A stretch of 64,000 nucleotides of DNA. Origin: an uncultured Candidatus Saccharibacteria bacterium (GTDB taxonomy: Bacteria; Patescibacteriota; Minisyncoccia; Phycocordibacterales; JACOZG01). The notes below the pieces were generated by a model. The model searched no databases. It saw only the letters and a list, made by a program, of their open reading frames with translations, and was not told the origin of the DNA. Positions 3,926 through 58,042 of the stretch are shown piece after piece. Position 1 is the stretch's first letter; every line of letters starts with the position of its first letter. Position numbers and translations under genes: made by a program. Location of the stretch: positions 268,400-332,399 of the forward strand of contig CAYNPK010000001.1 of NCBI GenBank assembly GCA_964399075.1. The letters are read 5' to 3'.

Positions 3926-4035
3926 TGTTCTGGCGGATACCTACTCTCCCCTTGCGAGTACCATCGGCACTATGGCGCTTAACTACTCTGTTCGGAATGG
4001 TAAGAGGTGTGACCACCACGTTGAACCACCAGAAC
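3926..4035 (-). rRNA. rrf: 5S rRNA
   Basis: Reverse complement reads TTCTGGTGG…CCATTCCGAACAGAGTAGTTAAGC…GCCGATGGTACTCGCAAGGGGAGAGTAGGTATCCGCCAG, which fits the 5S consensus. Confidence 0.8.
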
Positions 4036-4097
4036 ACAACACTCAACTAGTAATAAAAAAGCAATGCTGATAATTAATGATTTCCAGATTTCCCAAT

Positions 4098-7057
<2,960 letters not shown>

Positions 7058-7208
7058 CCATTGGGAAATCTAAAAACCATTTTTATCTTTCTTGCTTACT
7101 TTCTTGCTTGATGATTACTTTTACCTGCTCCGTCTCCAACTAAGTAAAAACCCTCTGAACTTGAGTTGTGACGAGCATTTAATTGTCAAAGAAGCTAGCC
7201 TGTTTCAG

Positions 7209-20587: not shown

Positions 20588-22072
20588 TTACTTCCTCATA
20601 AACAAGGGCGCCTCGGGCATCTTGTTTTCTTTTATTAACTCTTGAATTTTTTTAGCGGTTTCTGGCATGACAACAGCTAAACAGTGGGCTAGGCCAGCGA
20701 TATTCCCGACCAAGGATATAACATCATTTCTAGCAGCATCAGGAGTGGTTTTCCAAAGCTCAAAAGGTTTTCTAGTTTGTATATATAAATCGAGGTTCTT
20801 TATTTCATCCCAAATAAAATCCATAGATTTATTGATCTCAAATTGAGACAAGTGGTCAAAAAATGGTTTATACTTTTCTGCCTCTCCACGAATTTTAAAT
20901 GAATCATCATTAGTAACAACGGGCTTATCTAAATATTTTTCTGCCATCTTCATCACTCTGGACACTAAATTCCCCAAGCCGTTGGCCAAATGAGCATTGT
21001 AAGCCTCTTTTATCAATTCAAGCGTCACCGGACTATCTTCAAAAGGTGTAACATGACGGGCTAAATAATAACGAATAGCGTCAGTGCCATATTCCTCAAC
21101 AACTTCATGAGGGTTAATAACATTACCCAAACTCTTAGACATCTTCTGGCCACCAACTCCAGTCACAAAGCCACGAATTATAATTTGCTTAGAGGGTGGT
21201 AAACCAGCTGACATAAGCATCGCCTGCCACATCGCCGCCTGCTGGCGGAGGTTATCTTTGCCGGCAAATTGGGTTACCGGCCACCAATGCTTAAACTTTT
21301 TCTCATCAGTTGGCCAACCAATAGCGGACAGATAGTTGACCAGAGCGTCGAACCAAACATACATCACCTGATCCGGATCATCGGGAACAGGCACACCCCA
21401 AGGCATCTTCTTGGCCAAGCGCGAGATACTGAAGTCCTCCAAACCTCGCTCAACGAAAGCGCGAATCTCGTTCTGTCGCGAGACTGGTAAGACAAAATTT
21501 GGATTCTTCTCATAAAGCTCGAGAAGAGGTCTCTGATACTTAGAAAACTTAAAAAAATAATTTTCTTCTTCAATAAATTCTAAAGCTAAATTGGGATGGA
21601 GAGGGCATAGATTGTTAACTAACTCTGATTCGGTTTTTTCCAATTCACAACCGACGCAATATTTGACACGATAAGTTTTTTTATAAATATCACCAGCCTT
21701 AACACAAAGCCGCCAAAATTCTTGAGCCGCTCCAACATGATAAGGATCCGTGGTACGAATGAAATTAGTCCCCTCCCACAACCCTAAGGCTGGTAATAAT
21801 TTCTTAAATTCTAGGGCATATTTATCAACATAATCTTGAGGAGAAATACCAGCCACTTGCGCCGCCCGATAAATCTTCAAGCCATGTTCATCAGTGCCGG
21901 TATTAGAAAAAACTTCCCGGCCGGTTAATAAAAAATAGCGAGCAATAATATCAGCGTGGACCAGTTCAGCGGCAAAGCCGATGTGGGGATCGGCATTAAC
22001 GTAAGGTAGGGTGGTGGTAAGGTAAGTTTTAACCGACATCGGCGTGTTGACTACTTTTGCGCTTAGCGACAT
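20588..22072 (-). CDS. metG: Methionyl-tRNA synthetase, minimal form
   Basis: TTTLPYVNADPHIGF (HIGH region) and KMSKSLGNVI. Confidence 0.9.
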   Translation of the reverse strand: MSLSAKVVNTPMSVKTYLTTTLPYVNADPHIGFAAELVHADIIARYFLLTGREVFSNTGTDEHGLKIYRAAQVAGISPQDYVDKYALEFKKLLPALGLWEGTNFIRTTDPYHVGAAQEFWRLCVKAGDIYKKTYRVKYCVGCELEKTESELVNNLCPLHPNLALEFIEEENYFFKFSKYQRPLLELYEKNPNFVLPVSRQNEIRAFVERGLEDFSISRLAKKMPWGVPVPDDPDQVMYVWFDALVNYLSAIGWPTDEKKFKHWWPVTQFAGKDNLRQQAAMWQAMLMSAGLPPSKQIIIRGFVTGVGGQKMSKSLGNVINPHEVVEEYGTDAIRYYLARHVTPFEDSPVTLELIKEAYNAHLANGLGNLVSRVMKMAEKYLDKPVVTNDDSFKIRGEAEKYKPFFDHLSQFEINKSMDFIWDEIKNLDLYIQTRKPFELWKTTPDAARNDVISLVGNIAGLAHCLAVVMPETAKKIQELIKENKMPEAPLFMRK

Positions 22073-23132: not shown

Positions 23133-24357
23133 TTAAGGCCAGATTGAGACGCTCGTTAAGAAAAAGATCTCTAGCCAATTGCCGAATTTGAGCCGGAGTC
23201 ACCGCTCGCAAGCGTTTAGCAATAGCCTCCGGCGATGACAATTTGCCTCTAACTATTTCCGCCTCACCATAAAAACCGGCCAAACTGCTGGTTTTCTCTA
23301 AACCTAAAAACAAATTGCCAATCAGTGATTCTTTAGCGCGATTTAATTCTGGGAGTGGCACCAATTTAGTTTTTAATTTATCACACTCGCCAAGAATCGC
23401 CTTGACGATTTCTGGCGCGCGAGAGTTATCAGCGCCAACGGCAACTTGCATTACCCCGTGATCAGTGTAAGCATCGTTAGTGGCTCGCACATAATAAGCG
23501 GCCCCCAGCTCTTCGCGAATTCTCACAAACAAACGCGAACTCATGCTCCCACCAAGAACGGCGGTTAACACTTCTAGGATATCATTCTGTGGATGATTAG
23601 CTGGCAAAGCTCGGAAACCTAAAACCAAGTGGGTTTGATCTGATTTTTTGAATTTAACTAAAGTTTGTGGCTTAGTCTGACTCTCGACAACTGCTAACTT
23701 AGATAGCTTGGCTTGTGGTGTTAGGATCTTGAATTGCTGTTTAACCTTATTGAGCACTGTAGCTTCTAACAAAGGTCCGGCAACAACCACCACTGTAGCA
23801 CCAGCAACATAATGCTCGTTGCGATAAGCCAAAAAATCTTCACGCGTCAGAGAGCGAATAATATCTTTAGTGCCAATCACATCCCAACCAGCCGGCTGAT
23901 CACCATAGAGCAAAGAGAGGAAAATATTTTGGACCTGGCGTTGAGGCATATCTTCATACATATTAATTTCTTCAATGATCACCCCTCGTTCTTTGTCAAG
24001 CTCCGCAAGAGGAATAGTCGAATTAAGATACATATCAGCCAAGAGATCCAAGGCCTGATCAAACAACCGGGGCTGAACACTGGCGTAATAACCAGTATAT
24101 TCTTGAGAAGTAAAGGCGTTAAACTGCGCGCCAAGACTATCGAAGCCGGCGCTAATTAATTGTGGCTTAGGACGCTTCTTTGTACCCTTAAAACACAGGT
24201 GTTCTAAAAAGTGTGAGATGCCATTCTGGTCTTTAAGCTCATATTTAGAACCCGTTTCAGCTAGAATTAAAATATTAGTTGCGAGAGCTTCTGGTCGCGG
24301 AACCAGAATAACTCGGACACCATTAGCTAAAGCGTGCTTAGAAAATTTATTTGCCAT
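23083..24357 (-). CDS. M16 family zinc metallopeptidase (insulinase-like)
   Basis: Inverted zinc motif HFLEHLCFKGT (HxxEH). Confidence 0.8.
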   Translation of the reverse strand: MANKFSKHALANGVRVILVPRPEALATNILILAETGSKYELKDQNGISHFLEHLCFKGTKKRPKPQLISAGFDSLGAQFNAFTSQEYTGYYASVQPRLFDQALDLLADMYLNSTIPLAELDKERGVIIEEINMYEDMPQRQVQNIFLSLLYGDQPAGWDVIGTKDIIRSLTREDFLAYRNEHYVAGATVVVVAGPLLEATVLNKVKQQFKILTPQAKLSKLAVVESQTKPQTLVKFKKSDQTHLVLGFRALPANHPQNDILEVLTAVLGGSMSSRLFVRIREELGAAYYVRATNDAYTDHGVMQVAVGADNSRAPEIVKAILGECDKLKTKLVPLPELNRAKESLIGNLFLGLEKTSSLAGFYGEAEIVRGKLSSPEAIAKRLRAVTPAQIRQLARDLFLNERLNLALIGPVASPTPFERILRL

Positions 24358-25579
24358 CTGACAATGCTAGCACAAAATCGGAATTGATGACCACTCGCTC
24401 CTGCTTACCACTATCTCGGTCGCGGAGAGTAACGGTATTGTCAGCTAGGGTTTGAAAATCGATTGTTAAACAAGCGGGAGTGCCAATTTCATCTTGGCGA
24501 CGATAACGTTTACCAATATTGCCATTGTCATCAAAGCAAACATTAGGAATTACAGACTTAATTTGACTATAAATTTCGCGGGCTTTGTTGACTAAATCGG
24601 ACTTGTTCTTGAGTAAGGGGAAAACAGCAACCCTAATTGGCGCCAGCGCCTTAGGTAGTTTAAGAAAGGTTCTAGTCTCTCCCCCTAAATCATCCTCCGC
24701 ATAAGCGCTAACCAAAATTGCCAGAACTGTCCTATCCACTCCGAGCGATGGCTCGATCACGTGTGGCAAAAATCTATCCTTGCTTGCTTCGTCATAGTAA
24801 GTTAAATCTTGTTTACTGTGTGTTTGATGTTGTCGCAAATCATAATCAGTTCGGTAAGCCAAGCCATAGAGTTCCTTCCGGCCAAAAGGAAAATCAAACT
24901 CAAAATCAATAGTCCGATCAGAATAATGAGCTCGTTCGCCATCAGGCACTTCCAACTCATGAACCTGATCGTGGCTCAAACCAATAACTTCCATCCAGCG
25001 CCACATCGCCTGGCGCCACTCCTCAAAGTACTTTTCCCAATCAGCTGGCTTAATAAAATATTCAACTTCCATTTGCTCAAATTCGCGAGAACGAAAAATA
25101 AAATCCCGTGGTGAAATCTCGTTACGGAAAGCTTTGCCAATTTGAGCAATCCCGAACGGCAACTTAGGATGTTCAGAATCAACTACATTTTTAAAATTAA
25201 CAAAAATACCCTGGGCGGTTTCCGGTCTAAGATAAGAAACCTGTGGTTCTAGAGCACCAACTTGAGTTTGGAACATGACGTTAAAAGGCTTACCAGAATC
25301 TAGCGGATCAGTGAAAGTATCAACATGGCCGGAAGCCTGCCAAACCCTCTGATTCATGATGATCGCTGCGTCGAGACCGTACATATCATCACGATCTTGG
25401 ACAAACATCCGCCACCACAAATTCTTAAGGTTATTTTTAAGCGCAACACCAAGAGGACCATAATCCCAAGTACCAGCCAAACCGCCGTAGATATCCGATC
25501 CAGAATAAATAAAACCTCGTCGCTTGGCGAGAGAGATTATTTTGTCCATTATTAAATTGTTGATTTTATTGGATGACAA
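24347..25579 (-). CDS. glyQS: Glycyl-tRNA synthetase, alpha2 (class II) type
   Basis: …RRGFIYSGSDIYGGLAGTWDYGPLGVALKNNL…. Confidence 0.85.
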   Translation of the reverse strand: MSSNKINNLIMDKIISLAKRRGFIYSGSDIYGGLAGTWDYGPLGVALKNNLKNLWWRMFVQDRDDMYGLDAAIIMNQRVWQASGHVDTFTDPLDSGKPFNVMFQTQVGALEPQVSYLRPETAQGIFVNFKNVVDSEHPKLPFGIAQIGKAFRNEISPRDFIFRSREFEQMEVEYFIKPADWEKYFEEWRQAMWRWMEVIGLSHDQVHELEVPDGERAHYSDRTIDFEFDFPFGRKELYGLAYRTDYDLRQHQTHSKQDLTYYDEASKDRFLPHVIEPSLGVDRTVLAILVSAYAEDDLGGETRTFLKLPKALAPIRVAVFPLLKNKSDLVNKAREIYSQIKSVIPNVCFDDNGNIGKRYRRQDEIGTPACLTIDFQTLADNTVTLRDRDSGKQERVVINSDFVLALSDGK

Positions 25580-27513: not shown

Positions 27514-28104
27514 TTATAGATGACTGTGTTTGATAGCCTGATTAATAACCTGCACCATAATTTGCCTAGTTTTAGTATCTAAAACTAAAGAGGATTCTGG
27601 CCAATTCCACCCATCTAAAAAAGGCTGGATTAGAGCTTGGGATTTAATATAACCAAGCCTATCAAGCAAGCGCAAAACCATGATGAGCTCGAAGGACTGC
27701 AATTCGATGTGATTAAGATCCGCACGATTAAGAAACAAGAGGTCATCTCGTGTTTGGAAAAAGAGAGTTTGATTTTCTTCCGCTTCCGGAACCAGGCGCA
27801 ATAACAAACTCTTAACTCTTGTGGTCAAATAATGTTTATCCAGCTCGTGACGCAAGATTTCCAAATCTAAACGAGACTCCGCATTAACAATCCGCCAAAA
27901 TTCTCTCCCCTTCACCAGAGAAATCTTGAGGACAGACAAATTTTGCAGATTATAACGTAACTTTGACTTGAGATAGCGCACTCCTTGAGCTAGGGCAGTA
28001 ATCAAACCGAAATCGGGAGTTAGTAAATAAAACAAACGATTAGCCTCACCCAGTGAACGACCGGAGAGAATTATGGCCTCGGTAGTATATATTTTATGAG
28101 ACAT
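27514..28104 (-). CDS. recO: DNA repair protein RecO-like, short form
   Basis: N-terminal OB-fold pattern …EAIILSGRSLGEANRLFYLLTPDFGLITALAQGVRY…. Confidence 0.55.
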   Translation of the reverse strand: MSHKIYTTEAIILSGRSLGEANRLFYLLTPDFGLITALAQGVRYLKSKLRYNLQNLSVLKISLVKGREFWRIVNAESRLDLEILRHELDKHYLTTRVKSLLLRLVPEAEENQTLFFQTRDDLLFLNRADLNHIELQSFELIMVLRLLDRLGYIKSQALIQPFLDGWNWPESSLVLDTKTRQIMVQVINQAIKHSHL

Positions 28105-28107
28105 TAC

Positions 28108-31100
28108 TTAAACAAAAGTAAACTCTTTAGCATTAACAGCAAGCTTGAGAACATCAGCATGTTTAAGCACCAAATCTCGCCGAGCAAGCGACACAGGCAT
28201 AATAGCTAACTCTCCGGGCTTAAGACCTGATTTCTTGCGCCAATCTTGCAATTTGCGAATCAAATCACGCAACTCCCCCTCTTCTTTAAGTTCCGGAGTA
28301 AGTTCAAGATCTAACTCCACCTCGCTTACTAATTCTGGATCAGAAGAGATCTCTTTAACATTTACCTCATCTTTGATTAAGTCTAACAATTGACTATTAT
28401 TCTTAATTTCTAGCGACATCTTTTTAATTTTAAGCCTGGCTAAAGGCTGACGGACTTTAATCCCCGCCTTAGCTCGCGCCTCCAAACCCAAGGAGACAAT
28501 CCGCCTGACCTCAATCATATCTTCAAGCAACCCTTGATCGACAAGATCAACTACTCTAGGCCAAGAATCCAAATGAACGCTTTCTTGATCACCCTCGAGT
28601 TGACGATAGATTTCTTCAGCAACAAAGGGAGTAAACGGCGCCAAAACTCTAGCTAAGATATTAAACACCTGCGCCAAAGTCGCCGAAGCGTTGACTCTTT
28701 CTTCTTTTGCCTCTGGCTTAAAGCGGTCACGAGAACGACGAACATACCAGACTGAAAGATCTTCAATAAAAATATTAATCACCCGCAAGGCCTGATCAAG
28801 TTCATATCTATCCATCGCTTCAGTAACTTCGCCAACTAACTGATTTAAGCGAGCGATAATCCAACGATCTAAGACATGACGGCTAATTATTTTTTTAGCT
28901 ACTGATTGTTCAACATCAGCATAAGTTTGATAAAACAACCAAACATTATCTAAACGATTAATTACCTTGCGGTAAATCTCACCCACTCCTAATTCAGAAA
29001 AGCAGGCATCTTCCGCCTTCAAGAGAGGTGAACTTAGTAAATAAAATCGCAAAGCATCTGCACCGTATTGATTAAGGATCAAGAGCGGGTCAGGAAAATT
29101 ACCTTTGGATTTAGACATCTTCTGACCATCAGAGGCCAAAACACTGCCGGTAGTAACCACATTTTTAAAAGGAATTTTGTTAAATAAAATAGTCGCCACT
29201 ACGTGCATGTAGTAAAACCAAGTCCGAGTTTGAGCAATATATTCTGAGACAAAATCAGCCGGCACGCGACGTCTAGTCTGTTCTTCCCGCTCGAAGGGAT
29301 AATGTTCGGCCGCAAAAGGCATGGAACCAGACTCAAACCAGCAGTCAACCACCTCCGGAATACGAGACATTAGGCCACCACAGTTGCAAGTTAATTTGAT
29401 TTTATCAATATACGGCCGATGAAAATCCAATTCATAATCATGATTGTGAGGCAGAGGTTTGTAAGAGAAATCTTTAACCTCGCCAGTTAACAAGAAATCG
29501 TCGTGAGTTTCTTTAAAATTAGAAGCTTCCGTCACACCCAAACCCAAGGCGCCGGCAAACAGCATGGTAATCGGAGTCTCGTGAGAAATCAATAAAATAT
29601 TTTTGCCTTGATAGCGACCTTCTAGATCATCAATCAAATTCATCATCCGACGCTTGACCGTCATTAGATCTTCGCCATTCGGACAGCCCTTGGTGAACTT
29701 ATCAATCGGGTTAGAAAAATGATGATAATACTCCGCTACCGGTCGACCGTTGAAGTCGCCGAAGTCAACCTCACGCAAACGCTTATCGTAAATTACTGAA
29801 GCAGTAGGCAGAGACAGTTCTCGAGCAATCAGCTCGGTAGTCTCTCTCGTGCGGACAAAGTCTGAAGAAATAATTAAATCAATCTTAGCCTTTTCCAACT
29901 TAGACAACACAGCCTTAATTTGTTCTCGACCCTTATCCGTCAAGTGGTGAGGATTATCGACACGACTACTGACAATATCTTGCACGTTATGATCGGCTTC
30001 GCCATGACGCATTGCCAAATATTTATTACCAGCGCTAATCGCCTCTTCTTGGAGCTCTACTAGGGAGCTAATCACTTTAACAAACTGACACTGATCACAC
30101 TTCCAAATCGGCAAGGGTGTGGCCCAAAATCGATTACGAGAAATATTCCAATCTGGCGCCCCTGCCATACTCTTGGCAAAGCGACCAAACTTAAGATGTT
30201 CTGGAATCCAATTAATTTCCTGATTCAATTCTCGTAAACGAGGCTTAAGATCCTGAATTTTAATAAACCAAGATGGCACAGCGTAATAATAAAGCGGGGT
30301 CTCGCAACGATAACAATGCGGATAAGAGTGAACAATTTTTTGCTTATCGAATAAAATATCACGCTTGGCTAAAAATTTAATAATCTCAATATCCGTCACT
30401 TGATGATTGTCCTTAGGCTTAACTAGTTGACCGGCAAAATCTTTAACTTCCAGCTGGAAACGCCCGGTATGATCAACATGGACAACAATAGGCAAATTTT
30501 CCTTCTTAGCCAGCGCCATGTCGTCCTCACCAAAAGCCGGAGCGATGTGGACAATGCCGGTACCATCAACAGTATTAACAAAATCAGCGCCACAAACTCG
30601 ACCTTCAGTTAGATAATAAGCAAAAGGCGGTTTATATTTTTTACCAATTAAATCTCGCCCTAAAAATTCTTCCTCAATAGAATAATCTGATTTAATAGAA
30701 GCCAGGAGACGATCTTTAGCCAAGATAAAATATTCTTGGCCAATTTTAACTTTCACATAAGAAATCTGCGGACCAACAGCAACCGCCGTATTGCCTGGCA
30801 AAGTCCAAGGCGTTGTTGTCCACACCAGAAGATAAGTACCCGGCTCGTCAAGCAATTCAAATTTAACAAAAACAGAGATATCAGAAATGTCTTTGTAACT
30901 ATTATCCATCGCGATTTCCGCATTAGCCAAGGGCGTCTCGCAACGAGGACAATAGGGCAAAACTCTAGTGCCTTCGTATAATAAACCCAACTTATTCATC
31001 TCGCTCAAAGCCCACCACACTGACTCGATATAAGTGTTATCCATCGTCTTATAAGAACCAGCGAAGTCAACCCAACGTCCCATGCGCTCTATCACCTTCT

Positions 31101-31548
31101 GCCAATCTGCGACATAAGTGAGAACTTTGTCTCTAGCAGTTTGATTAAATTTATCAATCCCCAATTCTTCAATCTGCTTTTTGCCAGAAATCTTTAATTC
31201 CTTTTCCACGATATTCTCTACTGGCAAACCATGACAATCCCAGCCCCAACGACGCGCCACCCTCTTCCCTCGCATTGTTTGATAGCGGGGAATCACGTCT
31301 TTAATCGCGCTCGCCAAGATGTGGCCATAATGTGGTGTACCGGTAGCAAAAGGCGGTCCGTCGTAGAAGACAAATTCCTCGTCACTGACATTTTTAGCCA
31401 ATGACTTTTCAAAAATTTGCTGTTCTTGCCAAAACTTAAGAATTCTCTCTTCTCGCTTGGCCACTTCTGATTTTTCCGGCAAATTATTCGCCATAATTAA
31501 GTCTATCCTAGCATTTTTTGGCCAGAAAAAAAGCCCGCCGGAATACAC
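28108..31548 (-). CDS. ileS: Isoleucyl-tRNA synthetase carrying an about 195-aa histidine-phosphatase (PGAM-like) domain insertion. Likely true start at the internal Met MANNLPEK (31494).
   Basis: HIGH region PHYGHILAS and KMSKSKGN. Editing-domain blocks. The insertion …LAMRHGEADHN…LLISHETPI… lies between the KCDQC and CNCGG zinc-knuckle halves (about 29461..30048). Confidence 0.9.
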   Translation of the reverse strand: MYSGGLFFWPKNARIDLIMANNLPEKSEVAKREERILKFWQEQQIFEKSLAKNVSDEEFVFYDGPPFATGTPHYGHILASAIKDVIPRYQTMRGKRVARRWGWDCHGLPVENIVEKELKISGKKQIEELGIDKFNQTARDKVLTYVADWQKVIERMGRWVDFAGSYKTMDNTYIESVWWALSEMNKLGLLYEGTRVLPYCPRCETPLANAEIAMDNSYKDISDISVFVKFELLDEPGTYLLVWTTTPWTLPGNTAVAVGPQISYVKVKIGQEYFILAKDRLLASIKSDYSIEEEFLGRDLIGKKYKPPFAYYLTEGRVCGADFVNTVDGTGIVHIAPAFGEDDMALAKKENLPIVVHVDHTGRFQLEVKDFAGQLVKPKDNHQVTDIEIIKFLAKRDILFDKQKIVHSYPHCYRCETPLYYYAVPSWFIKIQDLKPRLRELNQEINWIPEHLKFGRFAKSMAGAPDWNISRNRFWATPLPIWKCDQCQFVKVISSLVELQEEAISAGNKYLAMRHGEADHNVQDIVSSRVDNPHHLTDKGREQIKAVLSKLEKAKIDLIISSDFVRTRETTELIARELSLPTASVIYDKRLREVDFGDFNGRPVAEYYHHFSNPIDKFTKGCPNGEDLMTVKRRMMNLIDDLEGRYQGKNILLISHETPITMLFAGALGLGVTEASNFKETHDDFLLTGEVKDFSYKPLPHNHDYELDFHRPYIDKIKLTCNCGGLMSRIPEVVDCWFESGSMPFAAEHYPFEREEQTRRRVPADFVSEYIAQTRTWFYYMHVVATILFNKIPFKNVVTTGSVLASDGQKMSKSKGNFPDPLLILNQYGADALRFYLLSSPLLKAEDACFSELGVGEIYRKVINRLDNVWLFYQTYADVEQSVAKKIISRHVLDRWIIARLNQLVGEVTEAMDRYELDQALRVINIFIEDLSVWYVRRSRDRFKPEAKEERVNASATLAQVFNILARVLAPFTPFVAEEIYRQLEGDQESVHLDSWPRVVDLVDQGLLEDMIEVRRIVSLGLEARAKAGIKVRQPLARLKIKKMSLEIKNNSQLLDLIKDEVNVKEISSDPELVSEVELDLELTPELKEEGELRDLIRKLQDWRKKSGLKPGELAIMPVSLARRDLVLKHADVLKLAVNAKEFTFV

Positions 31549-31590
31549 ATCCCGACGGGCCTGGGTCCGAAGACCCGAATGGAGGCCAAA

Positions 31591-31884
31591 TCACTTTTTC
31601 CTCCTCCGCCTCACTGTCTTGGTTGTCTGCAGTTCTCTGCGCGTCCTCTCGGGCCAGGGCTTAGGTGGTGACGACCCAAAACAAAATTCAATATCCGAGA
31701 GCCCCAGCTGTCTTTTCAAATCCTCCATTTGCTTGGCTCTAGCTTCAGCGGCGCAGACGGGACAGATACAAACAGAGCCACCAAGGACCGGGTTCTCCGG
31801 AGTGGATCCGCGAGCCGGTTCTGCGCCGAGGCAACGACTGTGTTCATTTCGGATACAGTTGTAACAAACTCTTAGAACCACCAT
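31591..31884 (-). CDS. Small zinc-ribbon protein with a highly basic C-terminal tail, GC-rich
   Basis: CYNC…CICPVC is a four-Cys ribbon. Ends RRRRKK. Strong RBS GGAGG 7 nt upstream of ATG. Confidence 0.5.
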   Translation of the reverse strand: MVVLRVCYNCIRNEHSRCLGAEPARGSTPENPVLGGSVCICPVCAAEARAKQMEDLKRQLGLSDIEFCFGSSPPKPWPERTRRELQTTKTVRRRRKK

Positions 31885-31944
31885 GATTGATCCTCCATTA
31901 TCACAACAAGGTTCATTTCTATTTTCAGATTACCGCAAAATCAT

Positions 31945-31985
31945 CAATAAAACAAGAAGAAAACCCCGGGCAAAATGACGCTCGG
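31945..31985 (-). terminator. Hairpin terminator downstream of DGR target 2
   Basis: AAACCCCG-(14 nt)-CGGGGTTT, then a T-rich run on the minus strand. Confidence 0.55.
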
Positions 31986-32038
31986 GGTTTCAAAAAACCT
32001 AAGGTTCTAAAAGTTTTAATGACCAAAGTTTCGAAGCG

Positions 32039-32486
32039 CTACTTGATGCGACGGCCAGCGAACCACCAGTCGCCATTCCAGCCATTGTCGCAGCAGTTGA
32101 CGTACACGTCGCGCTCGTCGTTCCAGTGGTTGAAGGCGATGTAGCACCATTCACCGCTTTCGTCCTTCCAGTGAGTGAAGTTGGGATACTGGTTGGCAAA
32201 ATCCGGGTCGGCCTCGTTCACCGCCGCCAGATCGTCGGGAAAGGCGGGGGCGAGACCCTGCAGTTCGCACTCATTCTCCAGATCGGCATCGGTCACGTAG
32301 CGGAAGAGGGGGGAAGAAAATGACCTCTGACTCTTCTCCAATACCACGGGGCATTTTAGCCACTACTTCGGGCTCGATGTACTGAACTCGACGAGTGGCA
32401 TCGAGTACCCCCTGGGAAGTGAGAGTGCGGTTGACTGGGACTCCCGAAACAACAACTAGACCGTTTCGTAGTTCCTGGATAATCAC
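32039..32486 (-). pseudogene. DGR target gene 2, a truncated paralog of target 1 carrying VR2. Interrupted by a +1 frameshift at a C6 tract (32308..32313). Putative GTG start after an AAAGGAGAG RBS.
   Basis: Two overlapping ORFs (32271..32549 and 32039..32347) together reproduce the target-1 C-terminal two-thirds. A tract one C shorter would fuse them in frame. Confidence 0.6.
32045..32138 (-). repeat. DGR variable repeat VR2, remote from the cassette
   Basis: 94-bp match to TR with 7-8 mismatches, all at TR adenines on the coding strand. The 3' block GGTTCGCTGGCCGTCGCA is identical. Confidence 0.8.
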
Positions 32487-32576
32487 AACACTCTCCTTTC
32501 GTTTTCTGGTTGTTTTCAGTTCCTGCGGGTTGGCACAAACCACACCCAAATCAAAGAACTCTGTTATCTGTTTAGT

Positions 32577-32605
32577 AAACTATGCTCTAATAATTAATCT
32601 GTCAA
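32577..32605 (-). promoter_or_regulatory. Sigma70-like promoter for target 2 (TTGACA-17-TAGTTT), homologous to the target-1 promoter
   Basis: The minus strand reads cTTGACAgattaattattagagcaTAGTTT. It is followed by a 5' UTR conserved with target 1. Confidence 0.45.
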
Positions 32606-32610
32606 GAGAC

Positions 32611-34257
32611 CTACATCTTCTCCGGAACCGTGATGCCTAAGAGATCCAAGCCGTTCTCAAGCACTTGCGCCACGGCGTTGGTCAAAGCCAAGCGATAATT
32701 TTCTTCCTCATTGCCGATAATTTTATTAACCGCGTAATAAGAATTGAAAGCAGAAGCTAATTCAGTTAAATAAGTAATTAAATAATTAGGCGAGTAGTCA
32801 GAAGCGGAGCGTTCGACAACTTCCGGGAAACGATACAAAATTCTCTCCACCAGACTAATCGCACTCCCCTCTCTTTCTGTTTCTTTAGCGAGAATATCCA
32901 AATCAATTTTCTTGTTCGCCTTAGCTACTACCGCTTTGGCCCGGACGCAAGTGTATTGCAAGTAAGGACCGGAGTCGCCTTCGAAGGAGAGAGATTTAGC
33001 AAAATCAAAAATAATATCCTTACCGGGCGATTGACGCAAAATGGAATATTTAAGCGCGGCAATTGCTACCTGCGTAGCAATCTTCTCTTTGTCTGTCTCA
33101 CTTAATTCTCTATCAGAAATTTTTTCCTCCACCAGACTCTCCACATCGGAAATCAACGATTCGCCAGTAATCACATTGCCCTTTCTTGATGACATTTTAC
33201 CCGTGGCAAGTTTGAGCATTCCGTGGGACAAATGCTTCGTTCGCTTAGCAACTTCTGGACGGATTTCCCACAAGGCTCGAAGTACAACCTTAAAATAAGC
33301 GTCCTGCTCATTGGCCGTAATAATAATCGATTCGTCAGCGGGATACTTCTCAAACTTTCGCAAAGCATGAGCAATGTCCTTGGACTCATAAGTCGGTACG
33401 CCTTGCTTGGTCACAAAAACTCGCGTATGGAGATTGGGTTCGAATTTCTCCCCTTCAAACACGATCGCACCGCCACTTTCTTTAAAAATCCCTTTTCCCA
33501 AAAACTCTTTGGTAATCGCCGTCGCCTCACCAGCCACCTCGCTTTCAAAAAAATAAAAATCAAATTTTGTCCCAAGCTTCTTATATAATTCCTCAAAGTG
33601 CTCAAGGCTCACTCTCTTGCCCCAAACATAAATCGTGGAGAGCTCTTCATCGTTCTTATCATACAATTTTTTATTTATCTCCTTGATCTCCTCTGTTGCC
33701 TGAACGTCAGTCTCATAAGCTTCCGCTCCGAGAGCGTAAGCTTTGCCGATATATTCCACCTGTTCACTCAAGCTTGACTCAATGACGCCACCCAGCTTCG
33801 TTATCCCCCAGACCGCCTTAGCAACATGCAAACCAACATCGCCCTGATAAGTATTACGCTTCACTTCGGCACCGTTCTTCTCGATTAGACGCGAGAGCGA
33901 TTCGCCGATCACGTTACCCATCAAGTGGCCAATGTGAAGAGGCTTCAATATGTTAGTATTAGTATATTCAATAATTACTTTCTTATTCTTTAAATTATCA
34001 CTCTGGCCAAAATTATTTTTTTTCTGATTGATCTCAATGATAGCTTGAGTAAAAAATTCAGGCGAGAAATAGAAATTAATAAAACCGCCAACAACAGCTA
34101 CTCTCTCCAGCCAAGCTGGTTTCTCTTTATTTATCTTAACCGCTAATTCTGTCGCCAAGCCACGCGCGTGGCATGAATAGTCACCATGATCTAAATTGCC
34201 AGGATGTTCAAATTTAAACGAGTCGCCCACCAATTTCTGTAATTCTTCAATAATCAT
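32611..34257 (-). CDS. argS: Arginyl-tRNA synthetase
   Basis: …KPLHIGHLMGNVIGE… HIGH region and …KMSSRKGNVI…. Confidence 0.9.
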   Translation of the reverse strand: MIIEELQKLVGDSFKFEHPGNLDHGDYSCHARGLATELAVKINKEKPAWLERVAVVGGFINFYFSPEFFTQAIIEINQKKNNFGQSDNLKNKKVIIEYTNTNILKPLHIGHLMGNVIGESLSRLIEKNGAEVKRNTYQGDVGLHVAKAVWGITKLGGVIESSLSEQVEYIGKAYALGAEAYETDVQATEEIKEINKKLYDKNDEELSTIYVWGKRVSLEHFEELYKKLGTKFDFYFFESEVAGEATAITKEFLGKGIFKESGGAIVFEGEKFEPNLHTRVFVTKQGVPTYESKDIAHALRKFEKYPADESIIITANEQDAYFKVVLRALWEIRPEVAKRTKHLSHGMLKLATGKMSSRKGNVITGESLISDVESLVEEKISDRELSETDKEKIATQVAIAALKYSILRQSPGKDIIFDFAKSLSFEGDSGPYLQYTCVRAKAVVAKANKKIDLDILAKETEREGSAISLVERILYRFPEVVERSASDYSPNYLITYLTELASAFNSYYAVNKIIGNEEENYRLALTNAVAQVLENGLDLLGITVPEKM

Positions 34258-48501: not shown

Positions 48502-49719
48502 TTAATTATTTCCGGCATGAACAATAATTTTAACAAAACGACGTTTGCCAATTTTTAAGATCAAATCAGCTTGGGGAGAGAAATCAGGATCAGTAATTTT
48601 AACCTCCTCCTCATCACGCACCGCTCCGGCCAACACCAGCCGACGCCATTCGGCCTTGGAGGCGACAACGCCAGCCTTAATTAAATCAGCAACTAGAGAT
48701 TGAGGATCACTAAGCGTGACTATTTGGAGATCTTCTGGCAAACCACTCTGTTGGAAGACTTGATTAAATTCTGCTTCGGCCAATTTAGCTGACTCAATGC
48801 CGTAAAATTGTTTAACAACTTCCAGAGCCGCGCGCGCCTTAGCTAACCTCGGACCTAGAGCCATAATGCTTTCGATCTCTCCAAGCGGAATTCTAGTGTT
48901 GTTAACCAAAAAGATTTTAATCATCTCATCGGGTTGAGCCATAATCGCACCAAACAATTCCTGGGGTGGAGAAGAGAGGAAGACGCCCGTGCCCTTGCTC
49001 TTAGACATCAGCTCGCCAGTTTTGGGATTAGCGATCAAGCCGGCGACAACAATAAACTTCTCCTTATCTTTCAAGCGCTTCATCAAAGTCCGGCCAGCTA
49101 GAGCATTGAAGGTTTGATCCGTGCCACATAATTCCACATCAACATCCATGGCCACGCTGTCGTAACCCTGCATCAGAGGATAGAGAAATTCGTGCAGGTG
49201 GATAGGTTTGCCACTCTCTAACCTCTGCTCAAACATATCTCGCTCCAGCATTTGCTGAACAGTAAAGTTGCTAGCCAGATCAAGAACTTGCTCGAAATTT
49301 AATTGCCCCAACCAATTTGAATTGAATCTTATTTGCACCGGATTCTCGCTATCCTCAAAGTCAACTAAATTTTTGACTTGATTCTTCCAGTTTTTAAAAT
49401 TTTCTTGCACCTGTTCTCTAGTTTGTCGAGGTCGAGCAGATAGCTTATCGCCCGGATCACCGATCATGGCTGTAAAGTCACCAATGAGGAAAATCACCTC
49501 GTGGCCGAGCTTCCGGAAATCTTCCAATAACAATAAATTTTGCGCGTGTCCAAGATGGAGAGAAGTGGAAGTAGGATCCATGCCGATATAAAATCTTAAT
49601 TTTTCGCCCGACAAGAGACGCTTGAACAAACTCTCTTTAGAAGGCAAAACCTCAACGATAATACCGCGATTAAAAATCTCTTCTATTTTCGCTTTGTCGG
49701 TAACAATTGGTGTGGGCAT
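48502..49719 (-). CDS. tyrS: Tyrosyl-tRNA synthetase
   Basis: …HLGHAQNLLLL… (HIGH) and …ELMSKSKGTG… (KMSKS). C-terminal S4-like. Confidence 0.9.
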   Translation of the reverse strand: MPTPIVTDKAKIEEIFNRGIIVEVLPSKESLFKRLLSGEKLRFYIGMDPTSTSLHLGHAQNLLLLEDFRKLGHEVIFLIGDFTAMIGDPGDKLSARPRQTREQVQENFKNWKNQVKNLVDFEDSENPVQIRFNSNWLGQLNFEQVLDLASNFTVQQMLERDMFEQRLESGKPIHLHEFLYPLMQGYDSVAMDVDVELCGTDQTFNALAGRTLMKRLKDKEKFIVVAGLIANPKTGELMSKSKGTGVFLSSPPQELFGAIMAQPDEMIKIFLVNNTRIPLGEIESIMALGPRLAKARAALEVVKQFYGIESAKLAEAEFNQVFQQSGLPEDLQIVTLSDPQSLVADLIKAGVVASKAEWRRLVLAGAVRDEEEVKITDPDFSPQADLILKIGKRRFVKIIVHAGNN

Positions 49720-54169: not shown

Positions 54170-57100
54170 TTACAAATCACCTTCCAACTTATTCGTCCCC
54201 CGTCCTGAATCCAGAATTTTGCCAACTTGATTGCGAACCCCCACTAAATCCAAGATATCAATCACACCGTCACGATTGATATCATAGAAGAAGTTAGTCG
54301 AATCAAGTTTTTGATTAAAACTGTCTCGGACTTTAATCAAATCACTCTGATCAACTTTACCATCCTGATTAACATCACCCAAGAGGGCGCCGACCTGCCA
54401 AGTGGGCGATAATCCGCCATCTTCCGCCACTAAGAGATTGCCAGAAGGATCAGTTAGATTTTGGAGTCGAATAGTGACAATCTGACCATCAGGAATCTCT
54501 TTGAGTTTCAAAACTAGTTCACCCAAACCTTCGCGGACTCGATGATTCATGATTTCTATAGACTGAATCAAATCATTGCGCACCACGGAGGGGTAACCTA
54601 AAGACAAGCTAACCGTATCTTTAGAAACCTGATTGGGGGTTGGTGTAACTAATTCATTAAAGACGAAACTAATCTCTTGGGGTCCAAGTTGGCGAGGCTC
54701 TACTGTTAATTGCCTCATTGTTAAATCTATGGGGAAAGTGAAGGTTCTCCCATCAAGAGAAATGTGTTTGAGGAGAGATCGAGCAAATTTTTCTACTCTA
54801 GGTTGAATAGTATCCGGCTTACCAATGGTAATATTTACCACAGACGACTCGGCTTTGTTTCCAGCAGCGTCATAAGCCTTAGCTTGGAGAGAAAATCGTG
54901 AATTAGGGGCAGGTGGAGTGGAAGTGTCCCAAACAAATTTGTAAGGGAAAGTGTCAACAGAATCAACCAATTGACCATCAATATAAAGCTCTACCTTGGT
55001 AACCATCACATCATCAGTGGCCATAATTTCTACCACTGGACGATCTGAATAATTAAAGAGGTCACCATTTTTGGGATCCAAAATACTCACCTCTGGTGGT
55101 TCTTGATCATTTTCTTCGAGTTCGAGTAAGTAGATTTGAGGATAGTCATGGCGATAATCAGCCCAAACAAATTTGTTGCCATCAAGATTGGGATTCACGT
55201 GACCAGAAGACGGATAACGGTAAACAATATTTTCTATCCCAGTGGCTAAATTATACGAAAAAAGAGCAGATCCCCCCGAAACAGGCGCCCGCCACAAGAC
55301 ACGCCCAGAATCAATGAGGGGAAGAGATTGATCAGACGAAGTTGGAGATAAACGACGCTCTTCCTTAGAAATTAAATCATACAAATAAATTTGATAATAA
55401 TAATTCCGATCATCCCCCCAAACCACCTTATTACCACTAATATCGGGGCTATATTTACTGGCATTTGGAGGAGGTGGGGGCAATAATTCTTCAGCGCCAG
55501 TATTTAAATCATGTACATGGACCTTTTGATTTGATGACATGTATACCATTTTATTACCATCGCGACGAATAACCTGACTCCAACTCAAACCCGTTGGTGT
55601 TTCCAAAATTCGTTCAGTATTAGTGTTTAAATCATACAAGGCAAATTGATAATCATATCTGGGATAAGGAGAAGGTTGCGTCCAAATGACTAAATGATCT
55701 TTAATAGTGGGGAGCCAATAGCTACGTCCGGGTTCAGAAGAAGAAATAACCCGACTAGTGTTTGTACTCAAGTCATAAACACGAAGATCTGTAGAACTGT
55801 TATACGGTGATCCAACATAGTCCAACCACACTACTTTATCACCGTCAATAGAGGGATAAAATTGCTGCCTTACTGAGGCATCGGGAAATAAGCGACGCTC
55901 GGTTCCAGTTTTTAAATCATAAAGATAAATTTGTGCATTACCATGACGAGAGTCCGACCAAACCACCTTATCACCATCAACATCTGGCCAAGCTTGATTT
56001 GAAGAAGTTGGCGATAGTCGGCGAGCGCCTCCCCTATCTATCCACACATCATAAATCTGGAATTGGGAAATACGACCAGCAGTATCGCGAGCGGTAACTC
56101 TGATAGTGTAATAAGCAGATTCCAAATTAAGACCTTGTTTCTGGTTAATATCATTTAGATCTATTCTAGCCAAGAGACTGTTATTGGATAGAGGTTGAGT
56201 AGAGCCAGATACCGGCACATTAACCCATTCCAGAGTCTTGGGTGAATCAGAAGAGGTGCCCATTTGTCGACTAATCTCCACGGTATGACGAGAGAAATTG
56301 GAGCCGGTGATCTTGCCCTTGAGATTGACTATCGAGTCGGTCTGGATGGTGCGACTCTTGGGCTCGGTAATGATGGGTGCCAGGGGTCTAGTTCCCGCTT
56401 GTTTATGATCATCAGCTAGTTTGAGAGAATTAAAAATGTTAATCAAACCATAGCCAGTATCAATATCTTTACCGGGGGGACCAATATCTTCGGATCCCTG
56501 TCTCATCAACTGCCTGACTTCCTCATTGGTTAAATTAGGGTTATGAGACCAGATTAGGGCTGCCAAACCAGCGACATGAGGCGTGGCCATGGAGGTGCCA
56601 GTCATTATGCAATAATTAGCTATCTTCAAATTATAATTAGGGGGGCAATCAAAAGATATTGCGGATTTAAGAGAAAGAATTGATTCTCCAGGTGCAGTTA
56701 ATTCTATTTTATCAGCTCTCTGGTGAGGCTCGCCACGCCTGGGAAAATACATGTTAAAATCTATGGTATCAACACTTATCACTAAATCAAGAGCGCTTGG
56801 GTCATAATCTAGAATCGTGTAAGACGGTAGATTCGGAGCACTGGCAACGATAAGCATTCCCTTATTGTGTTGATATTTGATCGCATCTACTATTGCCCTA
56901 CTTCGCCCAATACCATAATAACTATTGTTAGAAATTTTAGCTCCCATATCAGCAGCATATTGGAGAGCTCTGACAATGGCGACAAGGGAGAAGGAACCCT
57001 CCGCGCCACTATGCACATTTAACGCCATGACCTTTCCTTGCCAACTAACGCCAACCACGCCAAGCTCATTGTTGCCAGTAGCGCCAATGATCCCTGCCAC

Positions 57101-58042
57101 ATGAGTACCGTGACCAATATGGTCTACGGGGTCATTATTATTATCACCAAAATTCCAGCCATAATAGTCATCAATGTAGCCGTTGCCGTCATCATCAATC
57201 CCGTTACCAGGGATCTCACCGGGATTGGTCCAAATATTATCTTTAATATCGGGATGGCGATAGTCAACCCCGCTGTCAATCACCGCTACAATGATATCTT
57301 CCGAGCCGGTGGTAAAGCCCCAGCCTTCTTCGGCGTCAATTCTTTTCAAGCCCCAGAGATCTTCAATGCGAGAATTTACATTACCAGAAGAAAGCCAGAA
57401 GGGGTCATTGGGCGTGGCGGAGGCGGTGAGCTCAGCTAGGTAATTGGGTTCAACGACTTCGATATTGGGATCAGCATGGTAATCAGCCAGAACTTGCGCG
57501 AAGTTAAGCACCGGTTGGCTAATCTTGTTATCAGTAGAAATTTTGGGTTGCAATCTCTCTGGCATGTCACTAGTCTGGAATTGAGAGGGAGTAGCTAAGG
57601 ACTTTAGGTCTTGGACTCCAGAGGGTAGAGATAGAGTAGTGCTGGGGCCGGGCAAGGTTAGGATGTAATAATCAAAGAGCGGGTCAGAGAGGTCAGAACT
57701 GGGCATGGGCACCGCTAAGCGTTCTAACTTACTGGCTTGATACTTAGCATTAAGTTGCCTTAAGGAATTGAGACTAGTATCGGCAGAGGTGGATTTAGTG
57801 CCAAGTTTACTCTTGGCTTCTTTGGTAAACTTGATAATGATTTGATTACTTAAGAATTGAGCTGGAGCCGGTTCTCCCTTAGTGGGAGTGGCGAGGGTGC
57901 CAAGTGAGGCTGGAGCTTGATGGCGATCAAAGAGGCTGAATAGTTGATCAAGTGCCGGTGGTTTAAACCAGATTAATAAAGTGATAAAGATAATAGCGAG
58001 AATGAGAAGAATCAGTAACAGAGTGCGGATACGATGAGACAT
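54170..58042 (-). CDS. Giant secreted subtilisin-like serine protease (S8) with beta-propeller repeats and C-terminal dockerin-like Ca-binding repeats
   Basis: Catalytic triad motifs VAVIDSGVDYRHPDI, HGTHVAGIIG and GTSMATPHVAG. The C-terminus reads DVNQDGKVDQSDL…DINRDGVIDILDL. Confidence 0.8.
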   Translation of the reverse strand: MSHRIRTLLLILLILAIIFITLLIWFKPPALDQLFSLFDRHQAPASLGTLATPTKGEPAPAQFLSNQIIIKFTKEAKSKLGTKSTSADTSLNSLRQLNAKYQASKLERLAVPMPSSDLSDPLFDYYILTLPGPSTTLSLPSGVQDLKSLATPSQFQTSDMPERLQPKISTDNKISQPVLNFAQVLADYHADPNIEVVEPNYLAELTASATPNDPFWLSSGNVNSRIEDLWGLKRIDAEEGWGFTTGSEDIIVAVIDSGVDYRHPDIKDNIWTNPGEIPGNGIDDDGNGYIDDYYGWNFGDNNNDPVDHIGHGTHVAGIIGATGNNELGVVGVSWQGKVMALNVHSGAEGSFSLVAIVRALQYAADMGAKISNNSYYGIGRSRAIVDAIKYQHNKGMLIVASAPNLPSYTILDYDPSALDLVISVDTIDFNMYFPRRGEPHQRADKIELTAPGESILSLKSAISFDCPPNYNLKIANYCIMTGTSMATPHVAGLAALIWSHNPNLTNEEVRQLMRQGSEDIGPPGKDIDTGYGLINIFNSLKLADDHKQAGTRPLAPIITEPKSRTIQTDSIVNLKGKITGSNFSRHTVEISRQMGTSSDSPKTLEWVNVPVSGSTQPLSNNSLLARIDLNDINQKQGLNLESAYYTIRVTARDTAGRISQFQIYDVWIDRGGARRLSPTSSNQAWPDVDGDKVVWSDSRHGNAQIYLYDLKTGTERRLFPDASVRQQFYPSIDGDKVVWLDYVGSPYNSSTDLRVYDLSTNTSRVISSSEPGRSYWLPTIKDHLVIWTQPSPYPRYDYQFALYDLNTNTERILETPTGLSWSQVIRRDGNKMVYMSSNQKVHVHDLNTGAEELLPPPPPNASKYSPDISGNKVVWGDDRNYYYQIYLYDLISKEERRLSPTSSDQSLPLIDSGRVLWRAPVSGGSALFSYNLATGIENIVYRYPSSGHVNPNLDGNKFVWADYRHDYPQIYLLELEENDQEPPEVSILDPKNGDLFNYSDRPVVEIMATDDVMVTKVELYIDGQLVDSVDTFPYKFVWDTSTPPAPNSRFSLQAKAYDAAGNKAESSVVNITIGKPDTIQPRVEKFARSLLKHISLDGRTFTFPIDLTMRQLTVEPRQLGPQEISFVFNELVTPTPNQVSKDTVSLSLGYPSVVRNDLIQSIEIMNHRVREGLGELVLKLKEIPDGQIVTIRLQNLTDPSGNLLVAEDGGLSPTWQVGALLGDVNQDGKVDQSDLIKVRDSFNQKLDSTNFFYDINRDGVIDILDLVGVRNQVGKILDSGRGTNKLEGDL

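Follow-up and report, generated by a model that had tools for sequence, protein, structure and literature searches.

A histidine-phosphatase domain inserted in the CP3 zinc hairpin of isoleucyl-tRNA synthetase in Patescibacteria

The ileS gene in a stretch of DNA from an uncultured Candidatus Saccharibacteria bacterium (contig CAYNPK010000001.1; the whole stretch of 64,000 nucleotides that was analysed is called the window here) encodes a type-2 isoleucyl-tRNA synthetase (IleRS) with a second enzyme in its middle, a likely active branch-1 histidine phosphatase inserted at the zinc hairpin of connective peptide 3 (CP3). Judging from protein searches, this build is the rule in a large clade of Patescibacteria, and the phosphatase belongs to a subfamily that is almost always found inside or beside IleRS or its valine counterpart ValRS. 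We tentatively favor a reading in which the domain works as a phosphomonoesterase positioned next to the synthetic active site, where it would remove a phosphate that blocks aminoacylation. Aminoacyl-tRNA synthetases (aaRSs) belong to the most thoroughly studied enzymes, and a domain added to one of them is recorded as a sign of a new function. In targeted literature searches we came across no prior description of an IleRS whose catalytic domain contains a catalytically intact phosphatase, nor of any histidine phosphatase in an IleRS, in agreement with the preliminary description of this DNA, which had called such a module an undescribed feature of the enzyme.

The gene lies in a single unbroken open reading frame (ORF) at 28108..31548 on the minus strand, which counts 1146 residues from a GTG at 31548. 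The ileS product likely starts at M19 (31494), giving 1128 residues, and this shorter form is 100% identical over its full length to a database protein, P0121, from a 353-kb contig. The ORF scores 885.6 bits against the TIGR00392 ileS equivalog of NCBIfam (cut-off 621.4), and its best relatives in the Protein Data Bank are IleRS2 and eukaryote-type IleRSs with E values from 3e-229 to 1e-200, including 8c8v (3e-229), 1ILE and the yeast and Candida enzymes. Both class I motifs are present, with HYGH (of the HIGH type) at ORF residues 73-76 and KMSKS at 810-814. KMSKS is intact in 104 of 120 relatives, its middle serine is kept in all of them, and HYGH is kept too. The CP1 editing domain is recognized in residues 217-411 by a match to editing domains of IleRS studied in isolation (1wk8, E 3.6e-32), and Pfam assigns the C-terminal parts of the ORF to Anticodon_1 (894-1036) and DUF5915 (1077-1109). 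GC content is even along the gene, at 0.37-0.46.

An AlphaFold2 model of the full-length protein, computed from a 118-sequence alignment, has a mean predicted local distance difference test (pLDDT) score of 92.9 and a predicted template-modelling (pTM) score of 0.87. It superposes on 1ILE with a TM score of 0.93 (2.6 A) and on 8c8v with one of 0.81 (normalised by target), leaving the IleRS body intact. By homology and by the model, the protein is a type-2 IleRS with a working-looking synthetase body, and its main elements are as follows (HYGH and KMSKS placed by alignment with relatives, coordinates checked).

28108..31494, minus strand: ileS, type-2 isoleucyl-tRNA synthetase with an inserted domain (from the ORF, TIGR00392 and AlphaFold2)
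31321..31332, minus strand: HIGH-type motif HYGH, ORF residues 73-76
29107..29121, minus strand: KMSKS loop, ORF residues 810-814

The insertion is sharply bounded. When the protein is aligned with 8c8v, the IleRS2 of Priestia megaterium, query residue 503 pairs with chain residue 478 and query residue 700 with chain residue 479, which defines a clean 196-residue insertion with IleRS sequence running on in frame at both flanks. The halves of the catalytic core of P. megaterium IleRS2 are residues 40-168 and 513-632 (PMC10485003), so residue 478 falls in the connective-peptide region between them. The insert separates the cysteine pairs C484/C487 and C721/C723, which stand 34-37 residues apart in insert-less type-2 IleRSs, and occupies the middle of that hairpin; by this alignment the phosphatase is placed at the tip of the CP3 zinc hairpin.

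29452..30039, minus strand: inserted branch-1 histidine-phosphatase domain with linkers, ORF residues 504-699, 196 residues (gap against 8c8v, PF00300)
30088..30099, minus strand: CP3 zinc knuckle, first half, C484-D-Q-C487 (alignment, coordinates checked)
29380..29388, minus strand: CP3 zinc knuckle, second half, C721-N-C723 (alignment, coordinates checked)
30121..30159, minus strand: linker between CP2 and CP3, APDWNISRNRFWA, just N-terminal to the insertion hairpin (match to the yeast IleRS linker)

The preliminary description had recognized an IleRS carrying a complete histidine-phosphatase insert, and TIGR00392, PF00300 and the 8c8v alignment bear this out. The profile search, the structure prediction and the survey of relatives that it had proposed as checks all supported it. 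Several of its details needed adjustment. Its length of 1146 residues is that of the ORF from the GTG, whereas the protein probably begins at M19; the roughly 195-residue insert that it placed at 29461-30048 is the same stretch, with coordinates off by 9 nucleotides; and its zinc-knuckle site, which holds, can be refined to the CP3 subdomain. It had the insert correctly between the two halves of the cysteine cluster but took these halves to be contiguous in normal type-2 IleRSs, where they are in fact spaced as given above.

The linker APDWNISRNRFWA corresponds to yeast IleRS 453-ARDWNVSRNRYWG-465, and in the yeast enzyme, where CP3 comprises residues 459-526, the CP2-CP3 linker contributes to the pocket that receives the 3' CCA end of the tRNA and that reveromycin A occupies (PMC7955072). 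All four CP3 cysteines are kept in 98 of 120 insert-bearing relatives. In most of the remaining 22 none of the four is left, yet the insert is retained, so the zinc site seems dispensable once the insert is present. In such proteins the domain might take a structural role, as it would if it were a non-catalytic structural or regulatory module that binds phosphate, a nucleotide or a partner, or that stabilizes CP3 in place of the zinc knuckle.

The conservation of the insert argues against a non-catalytic module. Pfam PF00300 (His_Phos_1) matches ORF residues 513-679 (nucleotides 29512-30012) with an E value of 9.9e-36 and 123.7 bits against a cut-off of 21.7, spanning profile positions 4-170 of 194. 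The RHG and distal-histidine signatures named in the preliminary description are present, and R514/H515, R566, E593 and H656 align in register with the catalytic residues of CobC (6nru) and PspA (4ij5); the counterpart of H515 in 4ij5 is H9, the residue mutated in 4ij6. An alignment of 118-120 relatives shows no variation at R514, H515, R566, E626 or H656; conservation is 99% at E593 and R634 and 97% at G516 and N521. Identity to the window protein is 41% over the insert, against 60% over the IleRS core. Catalytic residues that are kept as the rest of the domain diverges make the pattern expected of selection on catalysis, and the same residues are kept in stand-alone relatives and in every extra copy described below. 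We therefore consider a purely non-catalytic role very improbable, and on these sequence grounds the inserted phosphatase is likely active.

30001..30009, minus strand: RHG motif, R514, H515 (predicted phospho-accepting histidine) and G516 (conservation, CobC/PspA alignment)
29851..29853, minus strand: R566, second phosphate-binding arginine, motif S-x3-R-T-x-E-T (invariant, translation checked)
29770..29772, minus strand: E593, predicted general acid/base, motif RLREVDFG (99% conserved; L-x-E-x3-G motif of CobC/PspA)
29581..29583, minus strand: H656, distal catalytic histidine, motif LLISHE (invariant; aligns with the SH of CobC/PspA)

In the full-length model the insert folds independently as an alpha/beta domain with pLDDT values of 94-98, and modelled alone it reaches 95.5 with unchanged secondary structure. 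Foldseek searches with the insert-only model returned GpgP, PhoE, PspA, a riboflavin-pathway phosphatase and CobC with probability 1.00 and TM scores of 0.70-0.76, at 22-27% sequence identity to these small branch-1 phosphatases. None of the curated NCBIfam equivalog cut-offs for known metabolic phosphatases is reached by the insert. Phosphoglycerate mutase was rejected on this basis (NF038349 dPGM_arch 100.2 bits against 225; TIGR01258 pgm_1 23.8 against 81.7; the other dPGM models 15-36 against 305-409), as were the alpha-ribazole phosphatase CobC (TIGR03162, 88.0 against 162.9) and the phosphoserine phosphatase PspA (NF045917, 66.4 against 350). By profile and alignment the insert is a bona fide member of the branch-1 histidine phosphatase superfamily to which a specific enzyme is not assignable. 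The label "PGAM-like" in the preliminary description is thus right as to superfamily and fold, and unsuitable as a mutase assignment. Its suggestion that the module could act on a nucleotide or a regulatory substrate stands as a proposal, since fold and sequence, about equally far from many small phosphatases, single out no substrate.

These likenesses bring in the main alternative, which we regard as quite possible. The insert could be a captured housekeeping phosphomonoesterase for small molecules, of the PhoE, CobC, PspA or GpgP type, that moved from a gene adjacent to ileS into permissive surface loops; it would be kept for a metabolic need of these reduced genomes rather than for aminoacylation, and the fusion would merely guarantee co-expression. 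Consistent with capture, the solved structures closest to it all belong to small-molecule phosphatases some 200 residues long, its best NCBIfam matches are to archaeal-type dPGM, CobC and PspA, and it is the sole copy in the window. The inserts are also acidic to neutral rather than basic, with a mean net charge of -2.5, and -7 for the window insert. Against capture, no equivalog cut-off for any known metabolic phosphatase is reached. A search of the PADLOC-DB anti-phage defense profiles gave no family at E<=0.01 for the insert, and one weak and probably spurious match for a stand-alone relative.

The fused build is widespread. PF00300 together with IleRS domains was found in 120 of the 120 best full-length relatives (52-69% identity, 1108-1330 residues), named examples of which belong to Candidatus Nomurabacteria, Taylorbacteria, Zambryskibacteria, Paceibacterota, Parcubacteria and Patescibacteria. 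Going by these names and sequences, the 120 are Paceibacteria-type Patescibacteria, and in this large clade the fusion is the rule. Some of them have been in GenBank and UniRef for years, labelled merely 'isoleucine--tRNA ligase'. The build recurs in more than 120 clusters drawn from NCBI, JGI, ENA and Logan, some of them represented on 10-25 contigs, and fragments with identical junctions were recovered independently. The breadth of this survey rests on protein searches, and a single-protein scan of species genomes gave five relevant loci. One relative, P0226 (1330 residues), combines the CP3 insert with part of an HD (metal-dependent phosphohydrolase) domain near the C-terminal end (1137-1179); it is known from a single 5.6-kb contig, and the HD part could be a read-through into the next gene.

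The unusual length of the protein could by itself have hinted at a chimeric assembly or a mis-called gene. A chimera or frameshift is ruled out by the continuous frame, the uniform composition, the identical P0121, the more than 120 clusters built alike and the IleRS sequence on both flanks, and we give an artefact practically no credence.

A profile of the insert run against 1.84 billion representative proteins matched 531 clusters at E<=1e-30. Sorted by hand, the domain copies in the 150 top-ranking proteins fell into 106 clear and 6 probable inserts at CP3 of IleRS, 20 true stand-alone proteins (159-210 residues, most of them 188-205), a small number at other sites, and fragments. Based on these best 150 members, the domain defines a distinct phosphatase subfamily of about 190 residues, linked to IleRS or ValRS in almost every case. 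That nearly all of them lie inside or beside one of these two synthetases is a further point against a captured metabolic enzyme. Fusions of a phosphatase to RNase H were also among the sequence-search matches. In a neighbor-joining tree of about 180 domain copies, which is poorly resolved, the ValRS copies fall mostly together, and stand-alone and CP3 copies are intermixed.

The phosphatase has entered IleRS at more than one place. By mapping core segments onto the core of the window protein with BLAST we distinguished three sites, A, B and C, of which A is the CP3 hairpin. B and C are empty in the window gene.

29251..29289, minus strand: site B, loop REEQTRRRVPADF after WFESG...HYPFE (BLAST mapping)
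28876..28923, minus strand: site C, loop YADVEQSVAKKIISRH, following KMSKS where the anticodon-binding helices begin (BLAST mapping)

Site B is occupied by a phosphatase domain in P0291, P0339 and P0274, and site C in P0291, P0303, P0339 and P0373. One protein thus has two copies in tandem at A (P0321), two have A and C (P0303 and P0373), two have B and C (P0291 and P0339) and one has A and B (P0274), and these multi-copy IleRSs pass the ileS equivalog by score. The site C loop is the lowest-confidence internal block of the window model (pLDDT 66). In the mapped IleRSs, each of the three sites falls within the second half of the catalytic domain or shortly behind it, and the RHG motif, the arginine, the glutamate and the distal histidine are kept in every extra copy as well as in the stand-alone proteins. 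For the capture explanation, it counts in favor that sites A and C are exposed loops. Occupation of at least three sites in IleRS, tandem copies and an equivalent site in the ValRS of other lineages are together hard to derive from one accident of adjacency.

The P0291 cluster, with its B and C copies, has six members, each on its own contig, the longest of 1.06 Mb. At the P0291 locus (L018, 8001-12260) the neighbors are pyruvate:ferredoxin oxidoreductase, adenylosuccinate synthetase, DAHP synthase and an SLH-domain protein, with no argS adjacent. This gene context, unlike that of Patescibacteria, suggests that the pairing of phosphatase and IleRS arose in another phylum too, and a variant in such an unrelated context, lacking an adjoining argS, is difficult for the capture explanation.

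The same domain recurs in ValRS. P0399 is a ValRS (849 bits for NF004349 against 704, with Val_tRNA-synt_C present) that carries two copies, one of them at the CP3-equivalent site. At least 13 further clusters of ValRS fragments have the domain at this position, making at least 14 in all, and some are named Candidatus Gracilibacteria or Doudnabacteria. A fragment with four phosphatase copies, P0255, is 24% identical to the window IleRS and by sequence is probably also from a ValRS. Directly upstream of the P0399 gene (L017) lies a PemK/MazF-type toxin gene at 162-596; the arrangement may be a coincidence, and it bears on the idea of toxin pressure discussed below.

Stand-alone members of the subfamily sit next to the synthetase gene. 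We looked up the genomic position of ten of them, and 8 of the 10 adjoin an ileS that lacks the insert. Seven (L008, L010, L012, L014, L015, L020 and L021) are directly upstream of ileS in the same orientation, with anything from a gap of 1 nucleotide to a short overlap, usually between argS and ileS and with recO after; at L019 the phosphatase gene adjoins ileS convergently. One of the remaining two adjoins argS, with an unidentified fragment downstream, and the other (L016) lies elsewhere. Synteny places the stand-alone gene between argS and ileS in L008, L010, L012, L020 and L021, and the order argS-(phosphatase)-ileS-recO is seen in L003, L008, L010, L012 and L021. In the L008 IleRS, which shares 51% identity with the window core, the zinc hairpin is intact and lacks the insert. 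Stand-alone and inserted forms have in common a fingerprint of conserved residues beyond the catalytic ones.

32611..34257, minus strand: argS, arginyl-tRNA synthetase, upstream neighbor of ileS (Pfam)
27514..28104, minus strand: recO-like gene, downstream neighbor of ileS (Pfam RecO_N)

The window keeps this arrangement. Its gene order is argS, ileS with the insert, recO, a DUF11-type protein, a class II synthetase and an M16 peptidase, which matches the stand-alone loci and L003. The spacer between argS and ileS (31549-32610), where relatives have the stand-alone phosphatase gene, is 1.06 kb long with a GC content of 0.55-0.57 against about 0.42 around it. It holds a single ORF of 102 residues (32039-32347, minus strand) that has no Pfam match, and it contains no phosphatase remnant; an Rfam search of the spacer gave nothing significant, and no second phosphatase copy was found elsewhere in the window. 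The position of the stand-alone gene within an argS-X-ileS-recO block of mixed functions also speaks for a captured housekeeping enzyme.

Conservation across a large part of the Patescibacteria, several sites and copies, the mirror case in ValRS and the presence of an adjacent stand-alone gene in place of the insert in relatives argue for selection rather than accident. A subfamily tied to IleRS and ValRS, inserted repeatedly at different loops and strictly conserved in its catalytic residues, argues that physical coupling to these synthetases has been selected. Given such coupling, the position of the sites near the second catalytic half, and site A following the linker of the CCA pocket, the explanation we favor, with some hesitation, is a phosphomonoesterase beside the synthetic active site that unblocks aminoacylation. 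The insert would remove, via a phospho-histidine intermediate, a phosphate that otherwise prevents charging. H515 would act as the nucleophile, R514, R566 and H656 would hold the phosphate, and E593 would serve as acid/base. IleRS would provide substrate binding and specificity and the phosphatase the repair chemistry, and in relatives with a separate phosphatase gene the same job would be done in trans.

Two candidate targets can be proposed. The first is a 3'-terminal phosphate or pyrophosphate on the tRNA CCA end, as made by toxSAS toxins. Pyrophosphorylation of the CCA end by toxSAS blocks charging and unrelated hydrolases restore it, and at least one such toxin, FaRel2, selects particular tRNAs (10.1101/2021.04.30.441581; PMC11559606). 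The second is a phospho-serine on the KMSKS loop of the enzyme itself, a site hit by HipA/HipT-type kinases in other class I synthetases: HipA and HipT phosphorylate a serine of the KLSKR/KMSKS loop of GltX and TrpS (PMC6581861). Taken further, the domain might be a built-in unblocking module, making this the first aaRS to repair its own reaction partners (the CCA end or its own KMSKS serine), and its repeated evolution in IleRS and ValRS would have given ultra-small bacteria immunity to toxins that attack translation; this extended version is speculative, and we consider it rather doubtful.

Several observations weigh against an unblocking role. The insert is about equally distant (22-27%) from phosphatases of very different small molecules, with no equivalog cut-off passed, and the acidic-to-neutral charge of the inserts, as computed from sequence, gives no sign of nucleic-acid binding of their own. 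Two to four copies in one protein are not obviously needed for repair in cis. The argS-X-ileS-recO block includes unrelated genes, so adjacency may reflect ancestry or the origin of the insert rather than a shared function. Finally, no tRNA-modifying toxin or Hip-like kinase specific for isoleucine or valine was found in the window, and we know of none that is specific for the Ile or Val systems.

A phosphatase bound to its synthetase could instead detoxify on target a phosphate-bearing inhibitor or toxic nucleotide directed at both IleRS and ValRS (for example a phosphorylated mimic of the aminoacyl-adenylate, or an adenine nucleotide with a 3' phosphate), much as resistance domains are found on or beside a drug target. 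The tie to two synthetases with closely analogous substrates fits, and catalytic add-ons to IleRS do exist, in the NF040702 class with its N-acetyltransferase domain and perhaps in the partial HD phosphohydrolase domain of P0226. Against detoxification, PADLOC gives no match for the insert, and to our knowledge no such phosphate-bearing inhibitor of IleRS or ValRS has been described. The IleRS inhibitors mupirocin and reveromycin carry no phosphate, and histidine phosphatases cleave phosphomonoesters, not the diester or phosphoramidate links of adenylate mimics. We judge this explanation improbable. Separately, the window protein was compared with the mupirocin-resistant enzymes MupA and MupB (NF000257 and NF000258) and scored about 752 bits against 1900, a general type-2 IleRS resemblance only.

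Set beside known systems, the synthetase part is conventional and its combination with a phosphatase is not. Like 8c8v and 1ILE, the window protein has a Rossmann core with HYGH and KMSKS, CP1, CP2, the CP3 zinc hairpin, an anticodon-binding domain and a DUF5915-type C-terminus. It differs from 8c8v by the 196 extra residues between 478 and 479, and no solved or described IleRS is known to have such a phosphatase domain. With PhoE (1h2e), CobC (6nru), PspA (4ij5) and the GpgP Rv2419c (4pza, 6s2q) the insert has in common its fold, its catalytic residues, a size of about 190-200 residues and a short cap region; those enzymes are free-standing, whereas this domain is embedded in, or encoded beside, a synthetase.

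The nearest analogies are other synthetases with an added catalytic domain and the RNase H/acid phosphatase fusion, and in none of them is a phosphatase inserted into the catalytic domain. The bifunctional RNase H/acid phosphatase (NF005567, PRK07238; mycobacterial Rv2228c/RnhC type) is another nucleic-acid enzyme joined to a CobC-like phosphatase and the second-best NCBIfam match of the insert (92 bits, below the cut-off of 326). It is an end-to-end fusion rather than an insertion, and the role of its phosphatase is unsettled. NF040702 (ileS_w_GNAT) also combines IleRS with a catalytic domain, but that domain is a GNAT, and the window protein reaches 312 bits against 1999. The small alarmone hydrolases that reverse toxSAS are alike solely in the proposed job, removal of a 3'-(pyro)phosphate (10.1101/2021.04.30.441581). 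They are free-standing antitoxins of the HD-domain RSH fold, whereas a role of the window domain on tRNA is a proposal.

The sequences discussed here can be found in public databases with automatic domain annotation; what this analysis adds are the stand-alone genes beside ileS, the further insertion sites and copies, and the domain in ValRS. The degree of conservation, the recurrence and the Rosetta-stone pairing of stand-alone with inserted forms are surprising. Should the domain work on the tRNA end or on the synthetase that carries it, translation would have a new layer of quality control or toxin defense, and an unknown toxin or stress acting on these symbionts would be indicated. If the domain is instead a captured metabolic enzyme, it would offer a natural example of a neighboring gene inserted into a loop of an essential enzyme, and metabolic reconstructions would be affected by an activity hidden within a gene named ileS.

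The surroundings of ileS are rich in genes of the same class. Five aaRS genes lie within 30 kb on the same strand, at 20588-22072 (MetRS-type), 24347-25579 (class II with an HGTP anticodon domain), 28108-31494 (IleRS), 32611-34257 (ArgRS) and 48502-49719 (Tyr/Trp-type), and the phosphatase is present in the IleRS alone. The minus strand at 3928-7065 carries a full-length 23S rRNA (4090-7065) and a 5S rRNA (3928-4033); there is no 16S rRNA in the window, and this may be an unlinked rRNA operon. At 54170-58042 on the minus strand, a protein of 1290 residues combines a subtilase with bacterial Ig and type I dockerin domains; for so small a genome this is a large protease, either secreted or located at the cell surface.

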